Source of the DNA: a virus
Lineage: Duplodnaviria; Caudoviricetes
Reading direction: 5' to 3' (one strand)
Virus record (IMG/VR): IMGVR_UViG_3300037400_004297
Span: 1 to 64,000 of that record
DNA length: 64,000 nucleotides
Below are positions 9,350-17,717 of the stretch, piece after piece. The stretch's first letter is position 1; the number at the start of each line of letters is the position of its first letter. The position numbers and the translations under genes are program-made. The notes beneath the pieces are model-generated. The model saw only the letters and a program-made list of their open reading frames with translations, searched no databases and was not told where the DNA came from.

Positions 9350-10789
9350 ATGAGTGAGAATTTAACAAATGGTAAATTTTTAGAGAATCTATATAAGCGA
9401 TTTCCAGATATTAAGTATGATTTTTCAGAAGCCGAATATATTGATAGTAAAACGCACATGAAAGTTATATGTCACGAAAAAGATTGTAATGGTATTGAGC
9501 ATGGAAGCTGGATGATAAGGCCATACAATCTGTATAGTGGATATGGATGTCCTAAATGTGCAGCCGAAAAACATAGACAGGAACGTAGAATGCCATATGA
9601 ACAGTATTGCAAGTTAGTATCAGAAAAGTATGGTGACGTATATGAAGTGGATAAAACATCTTACGAAGATAAGTTCAATAGATTAAAAATATTGTGTAAG
9701 AAGCATAATAAATATTTTGAAACGAATAGCAGGTTATTCCCAAGATTTAATTCACATAAATGTCCTGATTGTATTAAGGAAGATTTGGAGTGTAGTGGTG
9801 TAGATAGCAGTTTATCTACTGCGAATGACATCAATAGTTTTGATGATGAAGTGTGGGTTGATATACCAGGCTTTGAAGGAAAATATCAATGCAGTTCTGA
9901 AGGAAGATTTAGAAGAATAAATAGAAAGAATAGAGTTGGTAATAAAATTAGCGATTTAATTCTTAAAGTTAATTTTACAAGGAGAGCTGGTCAGATATCT
10001 CTAGACGGTAAAACCTATGTTGCTCATAGAATCATATATGAAACATTTCATAAAGTTAATCTAATAAGTGGATACACTTCTACAATAGACCATATAGATA
10101 ATAATGTTAGGAACAACAGAATTTCAAATTTGAGACTTGGTGGCACTATAAGTGAGAATATGTTAAATAACAAGCTTACTATTGCTAGACTATCAGCAAG
10201 AGGTGGGGCTGTTGGTATTTCACCTATATTTGATTTTGAAAAATTGGAAGGGGAAAAATGGGTTGATATAATAGGTTATGAAGATTCTTATATGGTTTCT
10301 AATTTTGGTAGGGTTGTAGCAAAAGATAGAACTCTTGTTGAAAAAAACACTGGTAAGAAGAGACTTAAGAAAGGACATCTAATGCGTCAAGCAATTAAAT
10401 ATGGACAATATTATACAGTTGGGCTTGTAGATGGTAATAGAATACGTAAGACACATTATACTCATAGATTGGTTTATGAAAGCTTTAATGGTAGAATAAA
10501 AGAAGGAAACCAAGTAGACCATATAGATTCCAATTCGTTAAACAATAGATTGGATAATCTTAGAGAAACAAGTCCTTTAGAAAATGTTAGAAATCCTAAT
10601 TCTTTATCTAAAAGAACTATACAAGTTAGGAAAGTGAATTTGCTTGGTGAAACATTGGCTATTTATGATTCTATTAAAGAAGCTGGCATAAAAAATAATA
10701 TTAAACCTGGATTAATTTCAAGATGGCTTAATGAAAATAATAGGCAGAAAAATAATAAGTTGAGGGGGTTTTATTTAATTAAAGTATAA
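9350..10789 (+). CDS. HNH homing endonuclease with tandem NUMOD4-HNH units and N-terminal Zn-binding repeats
   Basis: Two NUMOD4 motifs (WVDIPGFEGKY, WVDIIGYEDSY), two HNH motifs (DHIDNNVRNNRISNL, DHIDSNSLNNRLDNL), GCPKC and CPDC. Confidence 0.85.
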   Translation: MSENLTNGKFLENLYKRFPDIKYDFSEAEYIDSKTHMKVICHEKDCNGIEHGSWMIRPYNLYSGYGCPKCAAEKHRQERRMPYEQYCKLVSEKYGDVYEVDKTSYEDKFNRLKILCKKHNKYFETNSRLFPRFNSHKCPDCIKEDLECSGVDSSLSTANDINSFDDEVWVDIPGFEGKYQCSSEGRFRRINRKNRVGNKISDLILKVNFTRRAGQISLDGKTYVAHRIIYETFHKVNLISGYTSTIDHIDNNVRNNRISNLRLGGTISENMLNNKLTIARLSARGGAVGISPIFDFEKLEGEKWVDIIGYEDSYMVSNFGRVVAKDRTLVEKNTGKKRLKKGHLMRQAIKYGQYYTVGLVDGNRIRKTHYTHRLVYESFNGRIKEGNQVDHIDSNSLNNRLDNLRETSPLENVRNPNSLSKRTIQVRKVNLLGETLAIYDSIKEAGIKNNIKPGLISRWLNENNRQKNNKLRGFYLIKV

Positions 10790-10906
10790 ATAATATAAAC
10801 ATGGGATAAGTTATATTATTCAAAGAAGGAAATGTTAAATGATATAAAACATTATTCATATTTTAAGAATCTGGAGGAAATGTTGTGTGAGGCTAGCACT
10901 AAATAA

Positions 10907-10962
10907 TGTTAAATAATCGGGGTAATGTTTGGTTATCTCGATTTTTTTATGTATCTTTGCAC
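10907..10962 (+). repeat. 56-bp direct repeat copy A (terminator-promoter cassette) left of the IscB module
   Basis: 53/56 identical to 12729-12784; contains tttg (10928-10931) and TATCTTTG (10952-10959). Confidence 0.9.
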
Positions 10963-10963
10963 C

Positions 10964-11140
10964 AACTAATCTGGTATGATTAGCTTAAGCCCTTCGAGGG
11001 CTACGTTGAGGGAGAATATATAGGCACTTTGGAGTTGTTACCCAAGCCCCAAACCATGCGGCTAGCGAGAATGTCTTTCTAGTGAAAACCTCCAACCAAC
11101 ATTAGCGATGGGTACACAACGTCATTTATTTGACGGTTTA
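10964..11140 (+). ncRNA. IscB omegaRNA scaffold lacking a cis guide; tracrRNA-like, with 5' anti-repeat at 10964-10980
   Basis: OmegaRNA-like motifs TAGCTTAAG-[agccct-tcg-agggct]-CTACGTT, GAATATATAGGCAC, AACC..AACATTAGCGATGGGT; possible pseudoknot tacccA/tgggta; 3' hairpin cgtca-tttatt-tgacg. The first 17 nt are complementary to the array repeat. Confidence 0.85.
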
Positions 11141-11162
11141 CAACATTTTTAAATTAAAAGCA

Positions 11163-12437
11163 ATGGTTTATGTATTAAACAAGGATGGCAAACCCATAAT
11201 GCCAACGACAAGACACGGAAAAGTTAGGAGGCTTTTGAAGGAAGGGAAAGCCCACGTGGTTTCTACCGTTCCTTTTACAATCCAGCTTGACTATATTTCT
11301 GGTGAGAACCTACAAGAAATAAATCTTGGGGTTGACACTGGTTCTAGGTACATAGGCTTGTCTGCATCTACATCTTCTAAGGAGCTTTATGCTGCGCAGG
11401 TAGAACTTCGTAGTAAAGAGATTCCAGACCTTATTCTTTCTAGGCGTGAGTCTAGAAGAACTAGACGCAACAGAAAAACTAGGTACAGAAAGCCACGTTT
11501 TGATAATAGGAAAAGACCAAATGGCTGGTTAACTCCTACATCAAGAAACAGATTTGATGAACATATGAAAGCTATTCAGCGTGTCTATAAAATTCTACCT
11601 GTTTCTAACATAACCATTGAGATTGCTCCGTTTGATATCCAGAAACTAAAGAATCCAGGGATTCAAGGTGAAGAGTACCAACATGGTGAGTTGTTTGGTT
11701 TTGAAAACGCCAGAGAATACGCTTTAATTAGGGATAGGCACGAGTGCCAGCATTGTCACGGTAAAAGTGGATGCAAAACACTTCACGTACACCATATTCA
11801 ATACAGGTCACAAGGCGGTACTGATGCAGTTGGAAATCTTATCACATTGTGTGAGGATTGCCATAATAAACTACATAATGGTGAATTTGAACTTAACTTA
11901 AAAAAGATTACTAGCTTCAAAAACCAAACATCAGTATCGACAATCGGTAAACCTGTGTTCTGGAAGGCAAAGGAACTGTATGGTAATGTTAAGACTACGT
12001 ATGGCTACATAACCAAAACTAACCGCTTAAGGGGTGGAATTGAGAAGTCCCATACTAGTGATGCATTTGTTATGGCTGGCAACTTGAATGCTGACAGGTT
12101 TGGTGGATTCTACCAGTATAAGCTTAACAGAAGACATACTAGGTCTCTACATAAGCAACTTCCAAAGAAAGGTGGCATACGAGCAGCAACCACTGCCACC
12201 CATACAATAGGTAATAGTGGCTTGCAGAAGGGAGATTTGGTTCTCTGGAATGGGATGAAGTGCTTTATTAGTGGAAGCTCACATAATAGGCTATACTTGA
12301 AAGATATTAATGGTAATCTTCTGACAAGAAAACAAAATGATAACGGTAAGATGATATCTTTTACTGTAAGAACTGCTGATGTGAAATTCCTAAGAAGGAT
12401 GCACGGGAGTCATTTGCTCCAGTTTACTCGTGAATAA
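11163..12437 (+). CDS. iscB: IscB RNA-guided endonuclease (PLMP/RRXRR, split RuvC, bridge helix, HNH)
   Basis: MVYVLNKDGKPIMP; RuvC-I LGVDTGS; RRESRRTRRNRKTRYRKPRFDNR; RuvC-II ITIEIAPFD; HNH CQHC..HVHHI..GGTD..NLITLCEDCHNKLH; RuvC-III KSHTSDA. Start placed at ATG 11163 (424 aa). Confidence 0.95.
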   Translation: MVYVLNKDGKPIMPTTRHGKVRRLLKEGKAHVVSTVPFTIQLDYISGENLQEINLGVDTGSRYIGLSASTSSKELYAAQVELRSKEIPDLILSRRESRRTRRNRKTRYRKPRFDNRKRPNGWLTPTSRNRFDEHMKAIQRVYKILPVSNITIEIAPFDIQKLKNPGIQGEEYQHGELFGFENAREYALIRDRHECQHCHGKSGCKTLHVHHIQYRSQGGTDAVGNLITLCEDCHNKLHNGEFELNLKKITSFKNQTSVSTIGKPVFWKAKELYGNVKTTYGYITKTNRLRGGIEKSHTSDAFVMAGNLNADRFGGFYQYKLNRRHTRSLHKQLPKKGGIRAATTATHTIGNSGLQKGDLVLWNGMKCFISGSSHNRLYLKDINGNLLTRKQNDNGKMISFTVRTADVKFLRRMHGSHLLQFTRE

Positions 12438-12488
12438 GAGATAAGTGGAGTTTTTAATCATTTCGTCGATTCTTTGTTCAAAATATGC

Positions 12489-12722
12489 ATTGTATCAGAT
12501 TAGTTTTTAATATTATTAGATTTCTGGAATCGGTATTTATCGTAGACTTACCCACCCTTTATATATAATGATGAGTCAGGTTCTGAATGATTAATTGTAT
12601 CAGATTAGTTTTTTATATTATTAGATTTCTGGAAAAAGAGATATATCAATAATAACGCTGCCAATTGTATCAGATTAGTTTTTTATACCAGAACACACAT
12701 ATGAAATTGTATCAGATTAGTT
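12489..12722 (+). CRISPR. Degenerate CRISPR-like mini-array, 4 repeats with core ATTGTATCAGATTAGTT
   Basis: R1 12489-12529 and R2 12594-12634 (41 bp, 1 mismatch), R3 12664-12687 (24 bp), R4 12706-12722 (17 bp). Unique intervening sequences of 64, 29 and 18 nt. Confidence 0.8.
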
Positions 12723-12728
12723 AATTTT

Positions 12729-12784
12729 TGTTAAATAATCGAGGTAATGTTTGGTTATCTCGATTTTTTTATGTAATTTTGCAC
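12729..12784 (+). repeat. 56-bp direct repeat copy B (terminator for IscB/array, promoter for the next cassette)
   Basis: aatcgaggtaa-tgtttgg-ttatctcgatt hairpin + T7 + TAATTTTG; 53/56 identical to 10907-10962. Confidence 0.9.
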
Positions 12785-12799
12785 TCGAAATAATAAAAT

Positions 12800-13075
12800 G
12801 TGTACGTTATGACAAGAGAACAAGCTAAACAGATTCTTCTCAAGAGCATTGAGAAGGAGATAAAAAAATATGGTGAGGATACTGTCGCAGTGATGTCACC
12901 TATGCCAGGCAAGAACTTCTGGACATATAAAGAGTATAAGGATGCTGTTATTAATGACACTGACCTTGATGGCTGTGAGGATTCTAATCCTATCGATTCT
13001 CTTATCAGGTATGATGAATATCGTTTGGAGCGTGGCATGGAGAGTATGGTTGATAAGTTTTTAAAGGAGAAGTAA
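12800..13075 (+). CDS. Hypothetical protein
   Basis: 91-aa ORF directly after the promoter cassette. Confidence 0.6.
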   Translation: MYVMTREQAKQILLKSIEKEIKKYGEDTVAVMSPMPGKNFWTYKEYKDAVINDTDLDGCEDSNPIDSLIRYDEYRLERGMESMVDKFLKEK

Positions 13076-13076
13076 T

Positions 13077-13379
13077 ATGAGTAATTTGATGATTCTAATT
13101 CTAGTATGGGTAGTAGGCATTATTATTACCTTATTCATTCTCTATAAACAAAATGATAAGATAACACTTAGCGATGCACTATTGGTGCTGTTCTTCTGGT
13201 GGTTTTATTTAATATTCTTCATCAGTATGTGGTTGACCGTATGTGTTGAATGGATTTATGATAACACCAGGGACATAGTATTATTTGAGAAGAAGAAAGC
13301 CCCAAGGTGTAACAAGAAAACAAAGTTCCAGGAAACTATGGATAAACTGGAGAAACAAGTTGAAAATTTTAAAAAGTAA
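13077..13379 (+). CDS. Hypothetical membrane protein
   Basis: Two hydrophobic segments followed by a basic C-terminus. Confidence 0.6.
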   Translation: MSNLMILILVWVVGIIITLFILYKQNDKITLSDALLVLFFWWFYLIFFISMWLTVCVEWIYDNTRDIVLFEKKKAPRCNKKTKFQETMDKLEKQVENFKK

Positions 13380-13398
13380 CATTATAACATTTTAAACA

Positions 13399-15435
13399 AT
13401 GAAAAAGCTTTTATGGATTATGTGTGCAATGCTGGTCGGTATGTCAGCATATGCAAGTGAGACTAACGACACCATTATTAACAAGTCACTTGACGAGTTT
13501 ACGGTAACGTCGTTCTATCGTAGTTCCACCCCAATTCTGGGTAGCACTTTGAATTCACAGTCATTGATTTCTGCAAACTATGGTCAAGAGCCTTCTTGGC
13601 TGTTAGCAAACATGCCTTCCATCTTTGCATTCAGTGACAATGGTACTGATTTCGGTTATGGCTATTTCCGTATTCGTGGACTTGACCAGACTAGAATAAA
13701 TGTAACTCTTGATGGAATGCCTTGGAATGAGGCTGAGGATTTTGGCTGTTATTTCGCTAATAGCCCTGATATTTTAGCAGACGCTGGCAGTGTTGAAGTT
13801 GGACGTGGTACAAGCACCTATAACCCTGGTACTGCATCGTATGGTGGAAGTGTAAACATTAACTCTGTTGACCTCAAAAAGGACACTGAATCATATGCAA
13901 TGTTTGGTGGTGGTAGTTTTGCATCATTTAAGACATCTGTCAATATTAATACAGGTCTTATGGGTAAGTGGGCTATGCATGTACGTGCAACAATGTCAGA
14001 AACTGATGGCTATCGTGAGCATAGTTCAAATAAATCTAAGTCACTTGGCTTTAAGCTTGGTTATTTCATTAATGATAAGAGTTCAATTGACCTGCTGTCA
14101 ATCACTGGATATCACAAGAACGGACAGGGATATATTGGTGGCACAATGGAGGAGCTTGCGAAGAATCGTAAGATGAATGGCTGTAGTGAATATGAGGACG
14201 ATAATTTCTTCCAGACGGTAAATAAGCTTACCTATAATAGTTGGTTTGGTGATAAGGTATTGTTTACATCTTCATTGTATTGGAGTATGCTTCGTGGAGA
14301 GTATCGTTTTGATTTAGACAATTATCTGTTGCGAATGGAGGATTTTCCAGCGCAAACTGGCATGGTGTATAACTATGGGCTTATTCACCACAGCTATGGT
14401 GGTAATGCAGCAGCACGTTATTACATCAACGACGGCTCAATTACATTAGGTACTAACATCTATAAGTTCGAGCGTGAGCATTATCTTGATGACCGTAATG
14501 TTGATAAGGCTAAGAATATCACACCTGCTGACTACTATGACAATCGTGGACATAAGATGAGCTATGAGGCATTCATTAATGCGAAGAAGTCATTTGGCAA
14601 TTTCACACTGTCTGCTAATGTTCAATATCGTGGTGTTAAGTTCTGGTATGTTGACCTTATGAATCCATTAGTTAACTTTGATGAGAATACAACTTGGAAC
14701 TTCATTAATTTTGGTGCTGATGCAAGTTATAAGATTGGAAGTCATAATGAGTTATATCTGAAGTACGCACGTGCTCACCGTGAACCGACACGTACAGATA
14801 TGTTTGGTGGAAATGAATGGTATGTTGGTTCACTTACAACAACAGATGCTGAGGTTTCAAATGATATTGAATTTGGTTGGAATATTGCTGCAAAGAAGAT
14901 TAATGCTAATGTAAACCTGTTTGGAATGTTCTTTGAGAACGAGCGTTCACTTACTGGTACACTTGGTTTAAACGGTCTTCCTGAGCATGAGAAGGCTGAT
15001 AACAGTCATCGTATGGGTATTGAGTTATTCGTTGATTATGAGCCTTTTAGTAAGTTCCATATCGTTAATAACTCGTCTTTCTCTAATAATAAGGTAAAGA
15101 CTGAGACCTATGGAACTAAAAGTCATGTATTAACTCCTAATTGTACGTTCAACCAGGCGTTTGAGTGGCGTGATAACAAGTGGAGTGCTGGGGTAGAGTG
15201 GAAATATCGTAGTCATATGTACATTGATATGGCAAATGAGTTCCGTGTCCCTGACCTGTGGCAGCTTAATCTCTATGGTAGTGTTACCCTTGGCAATTTC
15301 ATCGTCAGTGGGCATGTTAATAACATTACCAATCGTGACAATATGCAGACAGGTGTGCTAACCAATACCAACAAGGCACGTTTCATGCCTGATGCGCCAA
15401 CTAACGTGTTTGCTTCGGTGAAGTACATGTTCTAA
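13399..15435 (+). CDS. TonB-dependent outer-membrane receptor (Bacteroidota vitamin-uptake type)
   Basis: Signal peptide; LDEFTVTS TonB-box-like; plug motifs FRIRGLDQTRINVTLDGMP and GRGTS..G..GGSVNI; C-terminal NNITNR...PTNVFASVKYMF ending in aromatic F. Confidence 0.9.
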   Translation: MKKLLWIMCAMLVGMSAYASETNDTIINKSLDEFTVTSFYRSSTPILGSTLNSQSLISANYGQEPSWLLANMPSIFAFSDNGTDFGYGYFRIRGLDQTRINVTLDGMPWNEAEDFGCYFANSPDILADAGSVEVGRGTSTYNPGTASYGGSVNINSVDLKKDTESYAMFGGGSFASFKTSVNINTGLMGKWAMHVRATMSETDGYREHSSNKSKSLGFKLGYFINDKSSIDLLSITGYHKNGQGYIGGTMEELAKNRKMNGCSEYEDDNFFQTVNKLTYNSWFGDKVLFTSSLYWSMLRGEYRFDLDNYLLRMEDFPAQTGMVYNYGLIHHSYGGNAAARYYINDGSITLGTNIYKFEREHYLDDRNVDKAKNITPADYYDNRGHKMSYEAFINAKKSFGNFTLSANVQYRGVKFWYVDLMNPLVNFDENTTWNFINFGADASYKIGSHNELYLKYARAHREPTRTDMFGGNEWYVGSLTTTDAEVSNDIEFGWNIAAKKINANVNLFGMFFENERSLTGTLGLNGLPEHEKADNSHRMGIELFVDYEPFSKFHIVNNSSFSNNKVKTETYGTKSHVLTPNCTFNQAFEWRDNKWSAGVEWKYRSHMYIDMANEFRVPDLWQLNLYGSVTLGNFIVSGHVNNITNRDNMQTGVLTNTNKARFMPDAPTNVFASVKYMF

Positions 15436-15454
15436 TTGGTTAATAATAGTTAAA

Positions 15455-15503
15455 AAATGAGGTAATCGTTTGGTTATCTCATTTTTTTTATGTAAATTTG
15501 CAG
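15455..15503 (+). promoter_or_regulatory. Terminator-promoter cassette
   Basis: aatgaggtaa-tcgtttgg-ttatctcatt hairpin, T-tract, TAAATTTG. Confidence 0.75.
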
Positions 15504-15524
15504 GTGAAATAAAATTAATTAATT

Positions 15525-16019
15525 ATGTTAGTTTGGGCTTTTAATAAAAATAATAAATCATTTAAATTGTGCGGAACATATGAGACATTGTTTTGGACAG
15601 ATAGAATGGGGTGCAAAGAAAGTAGTGTTTATATAAATGAATGCGACTACGAACTACCTAAAGATGTAGTAGATGCTTATTTTTCTGATTTGCTTTTTAA
15701 CCCCTTTACTGAATACAAATTTATTGTGAATAAGGAGAAATATGAGAAATATAATAGTTTCGGAGATTTTCCAACCACATACTTGGGTACTGTCTGTATT
15801 GTAGATGATAACAACAAAGTACTAAATGATAGACTTTATTCCCAATCAAATAATCCAAAAATAAGCATTTTAGAAAAATTTTTCGAATGTATTGGATATA
15901 AAGTTGAAATTTATAGACTTAATTACAATATGGAAAAAGAAATGAAAGAAAAAGGGTACGAACCTGTGTACTATTATGGAAGTGGTAGAGGTTGTGCATT
16001 ATTTGTTAAAAAGGTATGA
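15525..16019 (+). CDS. Hypothetical protein
   Basis: 164-aa ORF after the promoter cassette. Confidence 0.55.
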   Translation: MLVWAFNKNNKSFKLCGTYETLFWTDRMGCKESSVYINECDYELPKDVVDAYFSDLLFNPFTEYKFIVNKEKYEKYNSFGDFPTTYLGTVCIVDDNNKVLNDRLYSQSNNPKISILEKFFECIGYKVEIYRLNYNMEKEMKEKGYEPVYYYGSGRGCALFVKKV

Positions 16020-17104
16020 AAATAGGACTTTGTTTTGGTGGATATTGTCCAATGCATCGTGGGCATTTGGATGGCATTATGAGAGCCAAGAAGGAGAATG
16101 ACTTGGTTTTTGTATTTGTGTGTGGCTATGACAATGAGCCTCGTGCTGGAAACATTAACCTCACACTCAAAGAACGTGCTGCAATTGTTCGTAAAATATT
16201 CCGCAATGATGAGATTATCAAGGTTGAGGTGATTAACGATACTGAACTTGGCATTGATGAGAGCATGAGTGAAAACAACTGGGTTGTATGGCAAACTGCT
16301 GTGTCTAAGATATTAGACAAGCACGATGCAATGCATTATGGTGATAAAATTACCTGGTATGTTGCCGAGCCTATGTACAAGGAAATGCTGGAGAAACATA
16401 ATATGTTCAAGGCTGATGTAACTCTCATTGATAAGGTAGTGCCAGTGAGTGGAACTGCAATACGTGAAAACCCATTGAAATACTGGAAGTACATTGTCAG
16501 GGAATATCGTAATAACCTGTGCAAGAACATTCTCATTACTGGAACAGCTTCTGAGGGTAAGACAACGCTAGTACGTGACATATCAACGTATTTTGGCATC
16601 AACCATTCTGAGGAATATGGTCGTGATGACCTGCTTGCCAAGTGTAAGAGTGATACAGACCTTACTGCTGATGATTTCGTTGACTTCCTGATTGGTCAGA
16701 GTCTGGATATGCGCAAGCGTATTGCCAATAATGACAATGGCGTGTTTATTTCAGATACTGACAATTTGGTTACGCTAATGTATGCATTGGCATATACTGA
16801 AGACCCAAATGTACCAATCACAAAGGAGGAATATGATAATAAGGTACTTCCAGTAGCAAAGGCTCTTGAGGGTCGTGTAAAGTGGGACAAGATATATTTG
16901 TTACCACCAATGAATAAGTTCGTTGATGACGGTAGCAGGTATATGAAACAGGCTTCCATTGATGAAAGGGTTGCCAATTTCTCAAAACTATCAGCGTTAT
17001 TAAAGGATTTTGGATTGTATGACAAGGTAGAAATACTTTCTGGTGATTTCAAATCCAATTTTGAAAAAGTAAAAGACTATATCAACGGTTTATATAATGA
17101 GTAA
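16016..17104 (+). CDS. nadR: NadR-like bifunctional NMN adenylyltransferase / ribosylnicotinamide kinase
   Basis: FGGYCPMHRGH (HxGH), VSGTAIR, P-loop GTASEGKTT, EEYGR, ISDTD, FVDDGSR. Confidence 0.88.
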   Translation: MKIGLCFGGYCPMHRGHLDGIMRAKKENDLVFVFVCGYDNEPRAGNINLTLKERAAIVRKIFRNDEIIKVEVINDTELGIDESMSENNWVVWQTAVSKILDKHDAMHYGDKITWYVAEPMYKEMLEKHNMFKADVTLIDKVVPVSGTAIRENPLKYWKYIVREYRNNLCKNILITGTASEGKTTLVRDISTYFGINHSEEYGRDDLLAKCKSDTDLTADDFVDFLIGQSLDMRKRIANNDNGVFISDTDNLVTLMYALAYTEDPNVPITKEEYDNKVLPVAKALEGRVKWDKIYLLPPMNKFVDDGSRYMKQASIDERVANFSKLSALLKDFGLYDKVEILSGDFKSNFEKVKDYINGLYNE

Positions 17105-17717
17105 ATATCTCTCGTTTGGAGGCATTTTCCTAGCCTTAGGACTGCTTTTGCAGGTGGTGACGTACATTGTTACCAATGACACGTTTTTGTCGCTTATAAG
17201 CGGAATGTGTGGTGTTATATCAGTCGTATTATGCAGTCAGAGGAGTATGCATTTCTATACTTTTGGATTCATACAGCTCTTTACATATGTTTATCTATGC
17301 TGGGAACAGAAGTTGTACGCTGAGATTGCAGAGAATGTTTTCTATTTTGTAACTATGCTATATGGGATATACGAGTGGAATAACCATTTGGCAAACGATA
17401 AGGTTGAAACCAAGTCATTGGGTATTAACTGGTATACCGTTCTTGGTGTTACCATATGTGCTTGTGGTGGTGTCTGGAGCGTGTTGTTACATACTGATGA
17501 CACACAACCATTTATGGATGCCATAACGACAGTTCCTGCGTTTACTGCTCAGATATTGATGATTTTAAGATTCAAGGAGAGTTGGTATTATTGGTTGTTT
17601 ATTGACCTTGGTTGTATTGTTATGTGGTGGAATGCAGAGAATTACTGTATGGTAATGCAGTATATATTCTGGTCTATGAATTGTATATATGGTTTAACTA
17701 AATGGAATAAAATATGA
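17097..17717 (+). CDS. pnuC: PnuC-family nicotinamide riboside transporter
   Basis: Multi-TM protein; FYFVTMLYGIYEW, PFMDAITT, AQILMILRFKESWYYW; adjacent to NadR. Confidence 0.88.
   Translation: MSKYLSFGGIFLALGLLLQVVTYIVTNDTFLSLISGMCGVISVVLCSQRSMHFYTFGFIQLFTYVYLCWEQKLYAEIAENVFYFVTMLYGIYEWNNHLANDKVETKSLGINWYTVLGVTICACGGVWSVLLHTDDTQPFMDAITTVPAFTAQILMILRFKESWYYWLFIDLGCIVMWWNAENYCMVMQYIFWSMNCIYGLTKWNKI

Follow-up and report, generated by a model that had tools for sequence, protein, structure and literature searches.

A 64,000-nt stretch of viral DNA (Duplodnaviria; Caudoviricetes), taken from IMG/VR virus record IMGVR_UViG_3300037400_004297 and here called the window, encodes a TonB-dependent outer-membrane receptor, a bifunctional NadR and a PnuC-family channel. 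We consider it probable (roughly 0.7) that these three proteins give the phage a pathway across both membranes for pyridine nucleoside uptake and NAD+ synthesis, which would amount to the phage system NARP3 with an outer-membrane gate. The original prediction had placed the three genes at 13399–17717. These coordinates were exact, with all three genes on the + strand and all three proteins full-length (Table 1). The two-membrane import and salvage module that it proposed also appears coherent, in that the receptor family nearly always lies beside nadR, usually with pnuC between them.

The window is almost fully tiled by + strand open reading frames (ORFs), and its parent record is linear, 76.6 kb long and rated 34% complete. 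Among named genomes, the ∼540-kb Prevotella Lak megaphages come nearest to the window, together with the ‘uncultured phage’ genomes LR745206, LR756501 and LR756502 (634–735 kb); the window is thus part of the genome of a megaphage related to Lak. LR745206, LR756501, LR756502 and the Lak group have been predicted to infect Bacteroidetes (PMC7162821); Bacteroidales is the likely host order.

Gene linkage was surveyed with the receptor as the anchor, NadR and PnuC being sought within an 8-kb flank. Among 56 receptor loci in IMG/VR, on contigs of up to 553 kb, NadR was found within this distance in 51 and NadR together with PnuC in 41, with PnuC only in one. Close metagenomic homologues of the receptor (48–99% identity) all lay on megaphage-like contigs, and their sampled contexts contained the receptor, small ORFs, NadR, PnuC and often a radical SAM gene. 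The whole trio is also present in the complete Lak-A1, B1 and C1 genomes and in LR756501, LR756502 and LR745206.

A scan of one genome per prokaryotic species produced 80 loci, two of which were phage-like contigs in metagenome-assembled genomes (MAGs). The other 78 were almost all from Bacteroidota (Chitinophaga, Hymenobacter, Mucilaginibacter, Flavobacterium, Dysgonomonas and others), with receptors that are 31–36% identical to the window receptor over the full length. A full-length NadR was encoded directly downstream of the receptor in 72 of the 78 loci. Where pnuC was found between the two genes (45 of these 72), the order was always receptor–pnuC–nadR. No other operon gene, for example for a periplasmic nucleotidase, was common to more than 12 of the 78 bacterial loci. 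The clustering of receptor, NadR and PnuC is far beyond chance, and it points to a trio that works as one unit in bacteria and has been retained by megaphages time and again.

Several receptor contigs sit in MAGs with unexpected content or labels. One receptor, on a 109-kb contig of a ‘Bacteroidaceae’ MAG (JAFXJY010000033.1, locus L013), is basal to the Lak/window clade and 41% identical to the window receptor. Neither NadR nor PnuC was found within 8 kb of it, and no NadR was found anywhere in the MAG; either the contig is that of a megaphage and was mis-binned, or the copy is an orphan. Others are in MAGs named Clostridia, Staskawiczbacteria, Thalassovita and Bdellovibrionota. The Clostridia and Bdellovibrionota contigs have both NadR and PnuC, the short Staskawiczbacteria contig stops at the receptor, and the Thalassovita contig has the receptor only. 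The Clostridia contig is clearly megaphage-like, and the remaining three are probably binning errors or transfers.

The 678-residue receptor has a Sec signal peptide at residues 1–19 (N-terminus MKKLLWIMCAMLVGMSAYA/SE) and a Plug domain at residues 58–150 (PF07715, E 4.5e-09), and it ends in KYMF, with the C-terminal phenylalanine that is usual in outer-membrane barrel proteins. The segment LDEFTVTS at residues 31–38, within a disordered N-terminal part of the structural model, fits the LxEVxV consensus of the homologues and is a putative TonB box. Across 60 homologues the plug residues R93, G94, Q97, R99, N101, G106, N110, E113 and D114 are invariant, as are residues in the barrel. The protein can be aligned over its full length with bacterial TonB-dependent receptors, and its profile covers solved transporters from the plug to the last strand. 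An AlphaFold2 model (predicted local distance difference test score, pLDDT, 89.4; predicted template modelling score, pTM, 0.86) places the plug inside ∼22 long strands formed by residues 166–677. In a Foldseek search with this model, the best PDB match was the cofactor importer PqqU (9C4O, template modelling (TM) score 0.80), with YncD and FecA also matched; TM scores over the whole length were 0.78–0.82.

The only viral match to the model in BFVD was the protein of the marine megaphage Mar_Mega_1 and of LR745206 named ‘TonB-dependent receptor (SusC)’, which has been read as a SusC sugar importer (PMC9723777). We rejected a SusC/RagA-type importer for the window receptor, as these have about 1000 residues with an N-terminal extension, no SusC-type NCBIfam model was among those listed for it and no SusD family match was found in a Pfam scan of neighbouring ORFs, the 91-residue ORF at 12800–13075 being outside the scan. 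The LR745206 copy belongs to one of the phage clades of the receptor described below (clade C) and is followed by PnuC and NadR, and the SusC label is unfit for the receptor family in size, models and neighbours.

The receptor family is the closest paralogue of receptors linked to thiamine pyrophosphate (TPP) riboswitches, and some Pnu proteins carry thiamine (PMC6977713), both of which would suit an alternative in which thiamine or some other vitamin enters through the receptor and the Pnu channel, on the model of OMthi–PnuT, and NadR is unrelated. When the receptor profile was run on 151 sampled Bacteroidales genomes, 109 gave a match, and the matches fell into two tiers. The widespread tier (350–520 bits, proteins of ∼750–850 residues) occurs in most of the 109 genomes. 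At eight sampled loci of this tier, a TPP riboswitch was immediately upstream in six, a Pnu gene was downstream in three and NadR was found in none; these are OMthi-type thiamine receptors (cf. PMC5613172). The rare tier (>800 bits) was found in three genomes, with PnuC and NadR downstream in two; the third is the L013 copy, with neither. Against the six of eight paralogous loci with a TPP riboswitch, none was found at 10500–20500 of the window (E ≤ 1), and no riboswitch was found in ten bacterial NadR-linked loci. There was also no thiamine pyrophosphokinase among the locus proteins (Pfam scan).

A receptor tree was rooted on eight paralogous Bacteroidales receptors, six of which lie behind a TPP riboswitch. 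All NadR-linked receptors, from bacteria and from three phage clades, formed a single clade with 100% support in the SH-like approximate likelihood ratio test (SH-aLRT), and the window receptor is inside it. The window receptor scored 295–344 bits against NadR-linked receptors versus 150–198 bits against those of the thiamine type. Ten positions (E111, D114, S156, N241, R359, D467, G471, F512, E515 and G523) are conserved in the NadR-linked clade and fixed to another residue in the thiamine clade, and 97% of these are kept in the phage clade of the window. Together with the absence of a TPP riboswitch and a thiamine kinase from the locus, the placement of the receptor outside the thiamine clade led us to reject thiamine import, which we regard as very improbable, the more so as PnuC passes the NR-transporter model described below. 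The NadR-linked receptors are the sister group of the OMthi-type thiamine receptors. This bears out the description of the receptor in the original prediction as a type linked to pnu-family vitamin uptake, the sister receptors being those behind TPP riboswitches. The refuting condition named there, transport of thiamine only with no link to NadR, does not hold: no TPP riboswitch or thiamine kinase was found here and NadR is consistently adjacent. The comparison with thiamine receptors that was suggested as a check gives the fully supported NadR-linked placement.

The window NadR (362 residues) has an N-terminal nicotinamide mononucleotide (NMN) adenylyltransferase and a C-terminal ribosylnicotinamide kinase. 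It matched CTP_transf_like (PF01467) and AAA_28 (PF13521, 4e-19) in Pfam and, over its full length, phrog_3462 ‘nicotinamide-nucleotide adenylyltransferase’ (1e-62). Scores against the curated models TIGR01526 (2e-55, 188 bits, cut-off 341) and NF005988 (129 bits, cut-off 201) were under the equivalog cut-offs, as was likewise found for NadRs of the bacterial operons, and the window protein appears to be a divergent family member. The alignment with the solved structure 6GYE is end-to-end (7e-46). Further matches were to 1LW7 (1.5e-21), which we take to be the Haemophilus influenzae NadR structure, and to the phage enzyme 9X6F (3.5e-18), which is probably the solved NARP3 enzyme. The adenylyltransferase motifs HxGH and SxTxxR are kept (GGYCPMHRGH and VSGTAIREN) and align with 6GYE and 1LW7; in the kinase, Walker A (GTASEGKTT), Walker B (SDTD) and the lid (VDDGSR) align with 6GYE. 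The helix-turn-helix (HTH) regulator domain of enterobacterial NadR is absent: the window protein begins at the adenylyltransferase domain, and its alignment with NF005988 starts from profile position 65. The HTH is also missing from the NARP3 enzyme and from Lactococcus lactis NadR.

The 206-residue PnuC matched PF04973 (1e-39) and scored 123 bits against the nicotinamide riboside (NR) transporter model TIGR01528 (cut-off 42), with residues 6–206 aligning with 4QTN. Its predicted specificity for NR follows from the neighbouring NadR. In the virus record, the NadR stop and the PnuC start overlap by 8 nt.

Of 401 sampled Bacteroidales genomes, only 5 yielded a full-length NadR, and Bacteroides thetaiotaomicron, as a control genome, gave no strong NadR match. 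The frequency was taken from an order-level sample rather than from Prevotella, since the genome at locus L037, labelled Prevotella, shares a genus group with Dysgonomonas. In that genus group 3 of 35 genomes were NadR-positive, and the family of genome G003 comprised only 14 genomes. We also observed a stand-alone protein of ∼180 residues, matching only the ribosylnicotinamide kinase half of NadR, in 76 of the 401 genomes; this may be a separate NR kinase.

In the receptor tree the phage sequences form clade A (the window, Lak and relatives), clade B (LR756501-like) and clade C (LR756502- and LR745206-like). Each is monophyletic and apart from the bacterial clade, with a poorly supported branching order among the three; all were quick trees with SH-aLRT or FastTree support only. 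In clades B and C the genes are ordered as in bacteria, and NadR falls with that of the Bacteroidota operons. In clade A the order is receptor, NadR, PnuC. Its NadR is placed with Listeria- and Streptococcus-type NadR and is divided from the operon type by a split with 100% support; the clade A PnuC stands just as far from its operon counterpart. The origin of NadR was addressed by a representative search and cluster names, as a word-index search returned only close phage relatives. With a Bacteroidota-type receptor beside a Bacillota-like NadR–PnuC pair, the receptor has been partnered with NR salvage genes of two origins. In clade A, this came about either by replacement of the NadR–PnuC pair or by separate assembly of the parts; either way, the receptor would have been kept together with NR salvage by selection.

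The window trio appears to form two adjacent transcription units rather than one, because the receptor is separated from NadR by ORF164 and a predicted terminator/promoter cassette; the original prediction had the trio side by side. The linkage itself does recur, at 51 of 56 loci in phages and 72 of 78 in bacteria. Each unit is preceded by a hairpin followed by a promoter-like sequence (Table 1), the first being the likely start of the receptor unit and the second that of the NadR–PnuC unit. We read both cassettes on the pattern TTTG-N19–21-TAnnTTTG, which we take to be the Bacteroides housekeeping promoter consensus. The first contains an exact match to the motif TTTTTATGTAANTTTGCA. An 18-nt motif, TTTTTAT(G/A)TAnnTTTGCA, in which TAnnTTTG is the Bacteroidota −7 element, occurs eight times in the window (0.07 copies expected by chance), each time 5′ of a gene. 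The genes led by it include a 5′–3′ exonuclease and not the baseplate genes, and a hairpin precedes the motif in both copies that were read (12766 and 15485); the motif is probably a promoter class of the non-structural genes of the phage. The predicted units, to be read by host polymerase, are ORF91, ORF100 and receptor, and then ORF164, NadR, PnuC, a C10 peptidase, a radical SAM gene and a small ORF. In the second unit, NadR, PnuC, the peptidase and the radical SAM gene each have a start that overlaps the stop of the gene before. No NAD+ riboswitch (pnuC or nadA motif) or other Rfam element was found in the module in a search of 10500–20500 at E ≤ 1.

Table 1. Features in and around the receptor–NadR–PnuC module (window positions)
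Feature	Position	Strand	Basis or remark
Hairpin terminator (12737–12765), then promoter: TTTG (12750–12753), 20 nt, TAATTTTG (12774–12781)	12737–12783	+	Terminator scan, motif
Two small ORFs, 91 aa and 100 aa (membrane-spanning by hydrophobic stretches)	12800–13379	+	Between promoter and receptor
TonB-dependent outer-membrane receptor, 678 aa	13399–15435	+	Pfam Plug, fold, alignments
Second hairpin and promoter cassette: TTTG (15469–15472), 20 nt, TAAATTTG (15493–15500)	15458–15502	+	Exact motif at 15485–15502
ORF164, 164 aa, unannotated	15525–16019	+	Stop overlaps NadR start
Bifunctional NadR, 362 aa, no HTH	16016–17104	+	Pfam, PHROG, NCBIfam
PnuC-family NR channel, 206 aa	17097–17717	+	Pfam, NCBIfam
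C10 (streptopain-family) cysteine peptidase with Spi-inhibitor pro-region	17714–18820	+	Pfam
Radical SAM gene	18817–19683	+	Pfam, NCBIfam
Small ORF	19710–20018	+	
Strong terminator	20022–20048	+	Ends second unit
Baseplate genes	20115–22519		Downstream of radical SAM gene; Pfam, PHROG
18-nt motif copies	4695, 9311, 10944, 12766, 15485, 48783, 55615, 57003	+	Every copy 5′ of a gene
HNH/NUMOD4 homing-endonuclease genes	9350–10789, 22557–23690		
HEARO RNA match	10969–11120		52.5 bits, below gathering
IscB-like RRXRR + HNH protein	11130–12437		
TTGTATCAGATTAGTT, four exact copies	12490–12722		3′ of RRXRR + HNH gene

The genes accompanying the trio differ in how far they are conserved. The 91- and 100-residue ORFs before the receptor are conserved in four close relatives (L092–L094 and L108); the 100-residue ORF had no match in Pfam, PHROGs or NCBIfam. 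ORF164, with no match in Pfam, PHROGs, NCBIfam or the ESM Atlas, is variable, being present in L092 and L093, moved in L094 and absent from L095–L098. The C10 peptidase is missing from all seven of the close relatives L092–L098, where PnuC abuts the radical SAM gene, and because of this it is read as a recent insertion that lies outside the NAD module. The radical SAM gene and the small ORF after it are conserved neighbours that probably belong to a separate system. A radical SAM gene after NadR/PnuC was also observed in distant clade A phages and in LR745206 of clade C (five loci: L006, L009, L012, L101 and L109).

There is much variation in local gene order, because homing-endonuclease genes are inserted differently among relatives. 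HNH/NUMOD4 genes flank the module in the window, and their insertion sites around it differ among L092–L097. Upstream of the first cassette is a gene for an IscB-like RRXRR + HNH protein, with a HEARO RNA match on its 5′ side and four exact copies of TTGTATCAGATTAGTT on its 3′ side; HEARO/IscB RNA was the sole real Rfam match in the region searched. Lak phages recode TAG. Translation table 11 ORFs tile the window, with stops TAA 36, TGA 7 and TAG 6, and there was no sign of TAG recoding in the module, where ORFs were read under table 11 with no closer look made.

The pathway may be outlined as follows. Host RNA polymerase would transcribe the two adjacent units from Bacteroidota-type promoters, and the receptor would be exported by the Sec route, inserted in the outer membrane and energized by host TonB–ExbBD acting on the TonB box. 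It would then carry NR, or possibly NMN or NAD+, into the periplasm, from where PnuC would move NR over the inner membrane. The kinase domain of NadR would trap NR as NMN, which the adenylyltransferase domain would convert to NAD+, sustaining the NAD+ pool of the infected cell. This pool could counter NAD+-depleting defences, feed the phage’s own NAD+-using enzymes, or both. In this outline we infer the substrate, the timing of expression, the dependence on TonB and the selective benefit. A reason for the phage to carry all three steps would be that the route is missing from nearly all sampled Bacteroidales and that Bacteroidota are known to take up thiamine, another small vitamin, through a TonB-dependent receptor. 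Among five megaphage genomes, only LR756501 encodes a protein with a TonB C-terminal domain (470226–470459, − strand, E 5e-23), and Lak-type phages therefore presumably depend on host TonB.

Several observations weigh against this pathway. The receptor and the NadR–PnuC pair are in separate transcription units in the window, and in Lak phages ∼5 kb of other genes separates them. There are 27 bacterial and 10 phage loci with NadR and no detectable PnuC beside the receptor. The proposed ligands, NR, NMN or NAD+, are suggested by gene linkage, and our literature search found no paper, for any organism, in which NR uptake is tied to a TonB-dependent receptor. As NR is small (255 Da), the true ligand might instead be NMN or NAD+, either of which would require a periplasmic nucleotidase, and none was found in the locus.

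It is also conceivable, though improbable, that the receptor is no transporter here but remodels the outer membrane, for superinfection exclusion, receptor masking or as a decoy, its nearness to NadR–PnuC being historical. TonB-dependent receptors are common phage receptors, the window receptor has its own transcription unit, and remodelling has been proposed for outer-membrane proteins of huge phages, with Lak phages also encoding OmpA- and OmpX-like proteins (10.64898/2026.10.24.761521). The original prediction likewise suggested that the receptor might alter surface receptors. However, in 72 of 78 bacterial genomes, for which exclusion would be meaningless, the family is tied to nadR and mostly to pnuC as well. 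In addition, three old phage clades conserve the segment resembling a TonB box, the residues of the plug and 51 family-wide and 10 clade-specific residues, as would be expected for an active transporter, and the linkage has been kept even though the NadR–PnuC pair is of another origin. Uptake through the receptor remains our preferred account.

We next consider what the imported nucleoside would be for. NAD+ is clearly a managed resource for megaphages: an NAD+-dependent DNA ligase is encoded in four of five complete megaphage genomes and NAPRTase-family (nicotinate phosphoribosyltransferase) genes in all five. In LR756501 the NAPRTase-family gene (430260–430955, − strand) is 1.7 kb upstream of the receptor–PnuC–NadR cluster, making a larger NAD island, and in one relative (L008) the ligase gene is directly upstream of the receptor. 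Both gene types are absent from the 76.6-kb fragment, which has no bearing on the whole genome. These genes fit a general supply role as well as they fit counter-defence. The pathway could accordingly be as we propose with metabolic supply as its main benefit, in a phage that is very large, has a long cycle of infection and its own NAD+ consumers, and infects a host without NR salvage. The rarity of full-length NadR in Bacteroidales would suit this, and a study of NAD genes in jumbo phages argues likewise (PMC11662467). On the other side, the same two enzymes in NARP3 were shown to act in counter-defence (PMC13464706), and the two benefits are compatible. By analogy with NARP3, the module may act against SIR2/TIR-type systems; we give counter-defence as the main benefit about even odds, and supply as the main benefit a chance a little short of that.

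The name NARP3 was given in August 2026 to the combination of PnuC and HTH-less NadR of Escherichia and Salmonella phages, where experiments demonstrated NR import, NAD+ synthesis and defeat of Sir2–HerA (PMC13464706). The suggestion in the original prediction that the module is an alternative to known NARP pathways has accordingly been overtaken, as it would be an extended NARP3. Like Escherichia phage Bas30/TrudiRoth (PnuC, Bas30_87; NadR, Bas30_86), the window has adjacent genes for PnuC and HTH-less NadR and the same predicted chemistry, NR to NMN to NAD+. In contrast to the two-gene NARP3, which has no outer-membrane part, the window adds a TonB-dependent receptor; the NARP3 paper is silent on TonB and the outer membrane (PMC13464706). 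NARP3 hosts are Enterobacteriaceae, whose porins probably admit NR, whereas here a megaphage is the carrier and the likely host is from Bacteroidota. NAD+ restoration and escape from NADase were shown for Bas30_86/87 in E. coli (PMC13464706), while the window system is known from its genes.

The Bacteroidota operon (receptor, pnuC, nadR) has the same three families as the window, with its receptor in the same clade. Clade A differs from it in the order receptor–NadR–PnuC, in the Bacillota-like NadR–PnuC pair and in the extra ORFs and promoter in between. No publication on this operon was found in our literature search. H. influenzae likewise leads extracellular NAD and NR to NAD+ by a route that ends in PnuC and a bifunctional NadR; its parts are the OmpP2 porin, the periplasmic enzymes NadN and e(P4), PnuC and NadR, and NAD+ and NMN are broken down to NR in the periplasm. 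Where H. influenzae uses a porin and periplasmic enzymes, the window has a TonB-dependent receptor and no recognizable periplasmic nucleotidase.

The precedent for a TonB-dependent receptor feeding a Pnu channel is OMthi–PnuT, for thiamine (PMC5613172, PMC6977713). In Bacteroides thetaiotaomicron, OMthi–PnuT–TnrS3 has the same layout as the window: a receptor, a Pnu inner-membrane channel and a trapping kinase (PMC5613172). The OMthi system has a TPP riboswitch and thiamine pyrophosphokinase, whereas the window locus has neither, and the ten conserved residues of the window receptor clade differ.

Previous phage studies have touched on parts of the module. In the jumbo-phage survey pnuC and nadR are counted as NAD genes, with no mention of TonB (PMC11662467), and none of the three genes appears in the main text of the Lak papers. 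In a preprint dated 24 October 2026, a Lak cluster is reported to encode a TonB-dependent receptor of 22 strands that is transcribed in gut metatranscriptomes, and NMN-transporter genes are reported near some phage outer-membrane proteins; the preprint discusses receptor masking and not NAD+ (10.64898/2026.10.24.761521). A link between receptor and NAD+ is made neither in the NARP3 paper nor in this preprint. Gene content and phylogeny give good support to reading the module as a NARP3 variant with three components and two membranes, and as a homologue of an undescribed operon of Bacteroidota.

A bolder version of this account is possible, and we hold it tentatively, with the odds somewhat against it. 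The receptor clade would be the first dedicated outer-membrane importer of a B3 form (NR, NMN or NAD+) in Bacteroidota, captured by megaphages at least once and re-partnered with a foreign NadR–PnuC pair. The resulting line from outside the cell to NAD+ would let the phage replicate despite the NAD+ drain of Sir2/TIR defences, and NARP3 would need an envelope-specific third part where porins are unsuitable.

Outer-membrane uptake of vitamin B3 in Bacteroidota is undescribed in the papers searched, and the gene context of this receptor family predicts a pyridine-nucleoside ligand. As sister groups, the OMthi-type and NadR-linked receptors would make a clean pair for studies of specificity. The persistence of the link between the receptor and NR salvage, despite an enzyme–channel pair of other origin, is evidence for a working unit. 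The module would also carry NARP3 beyond the phages of enterobacteria, into Lak and its relatives, which are the largest gut and rumen phages known, and it suggests that NARP3 must be fitted to the envelope of the host.

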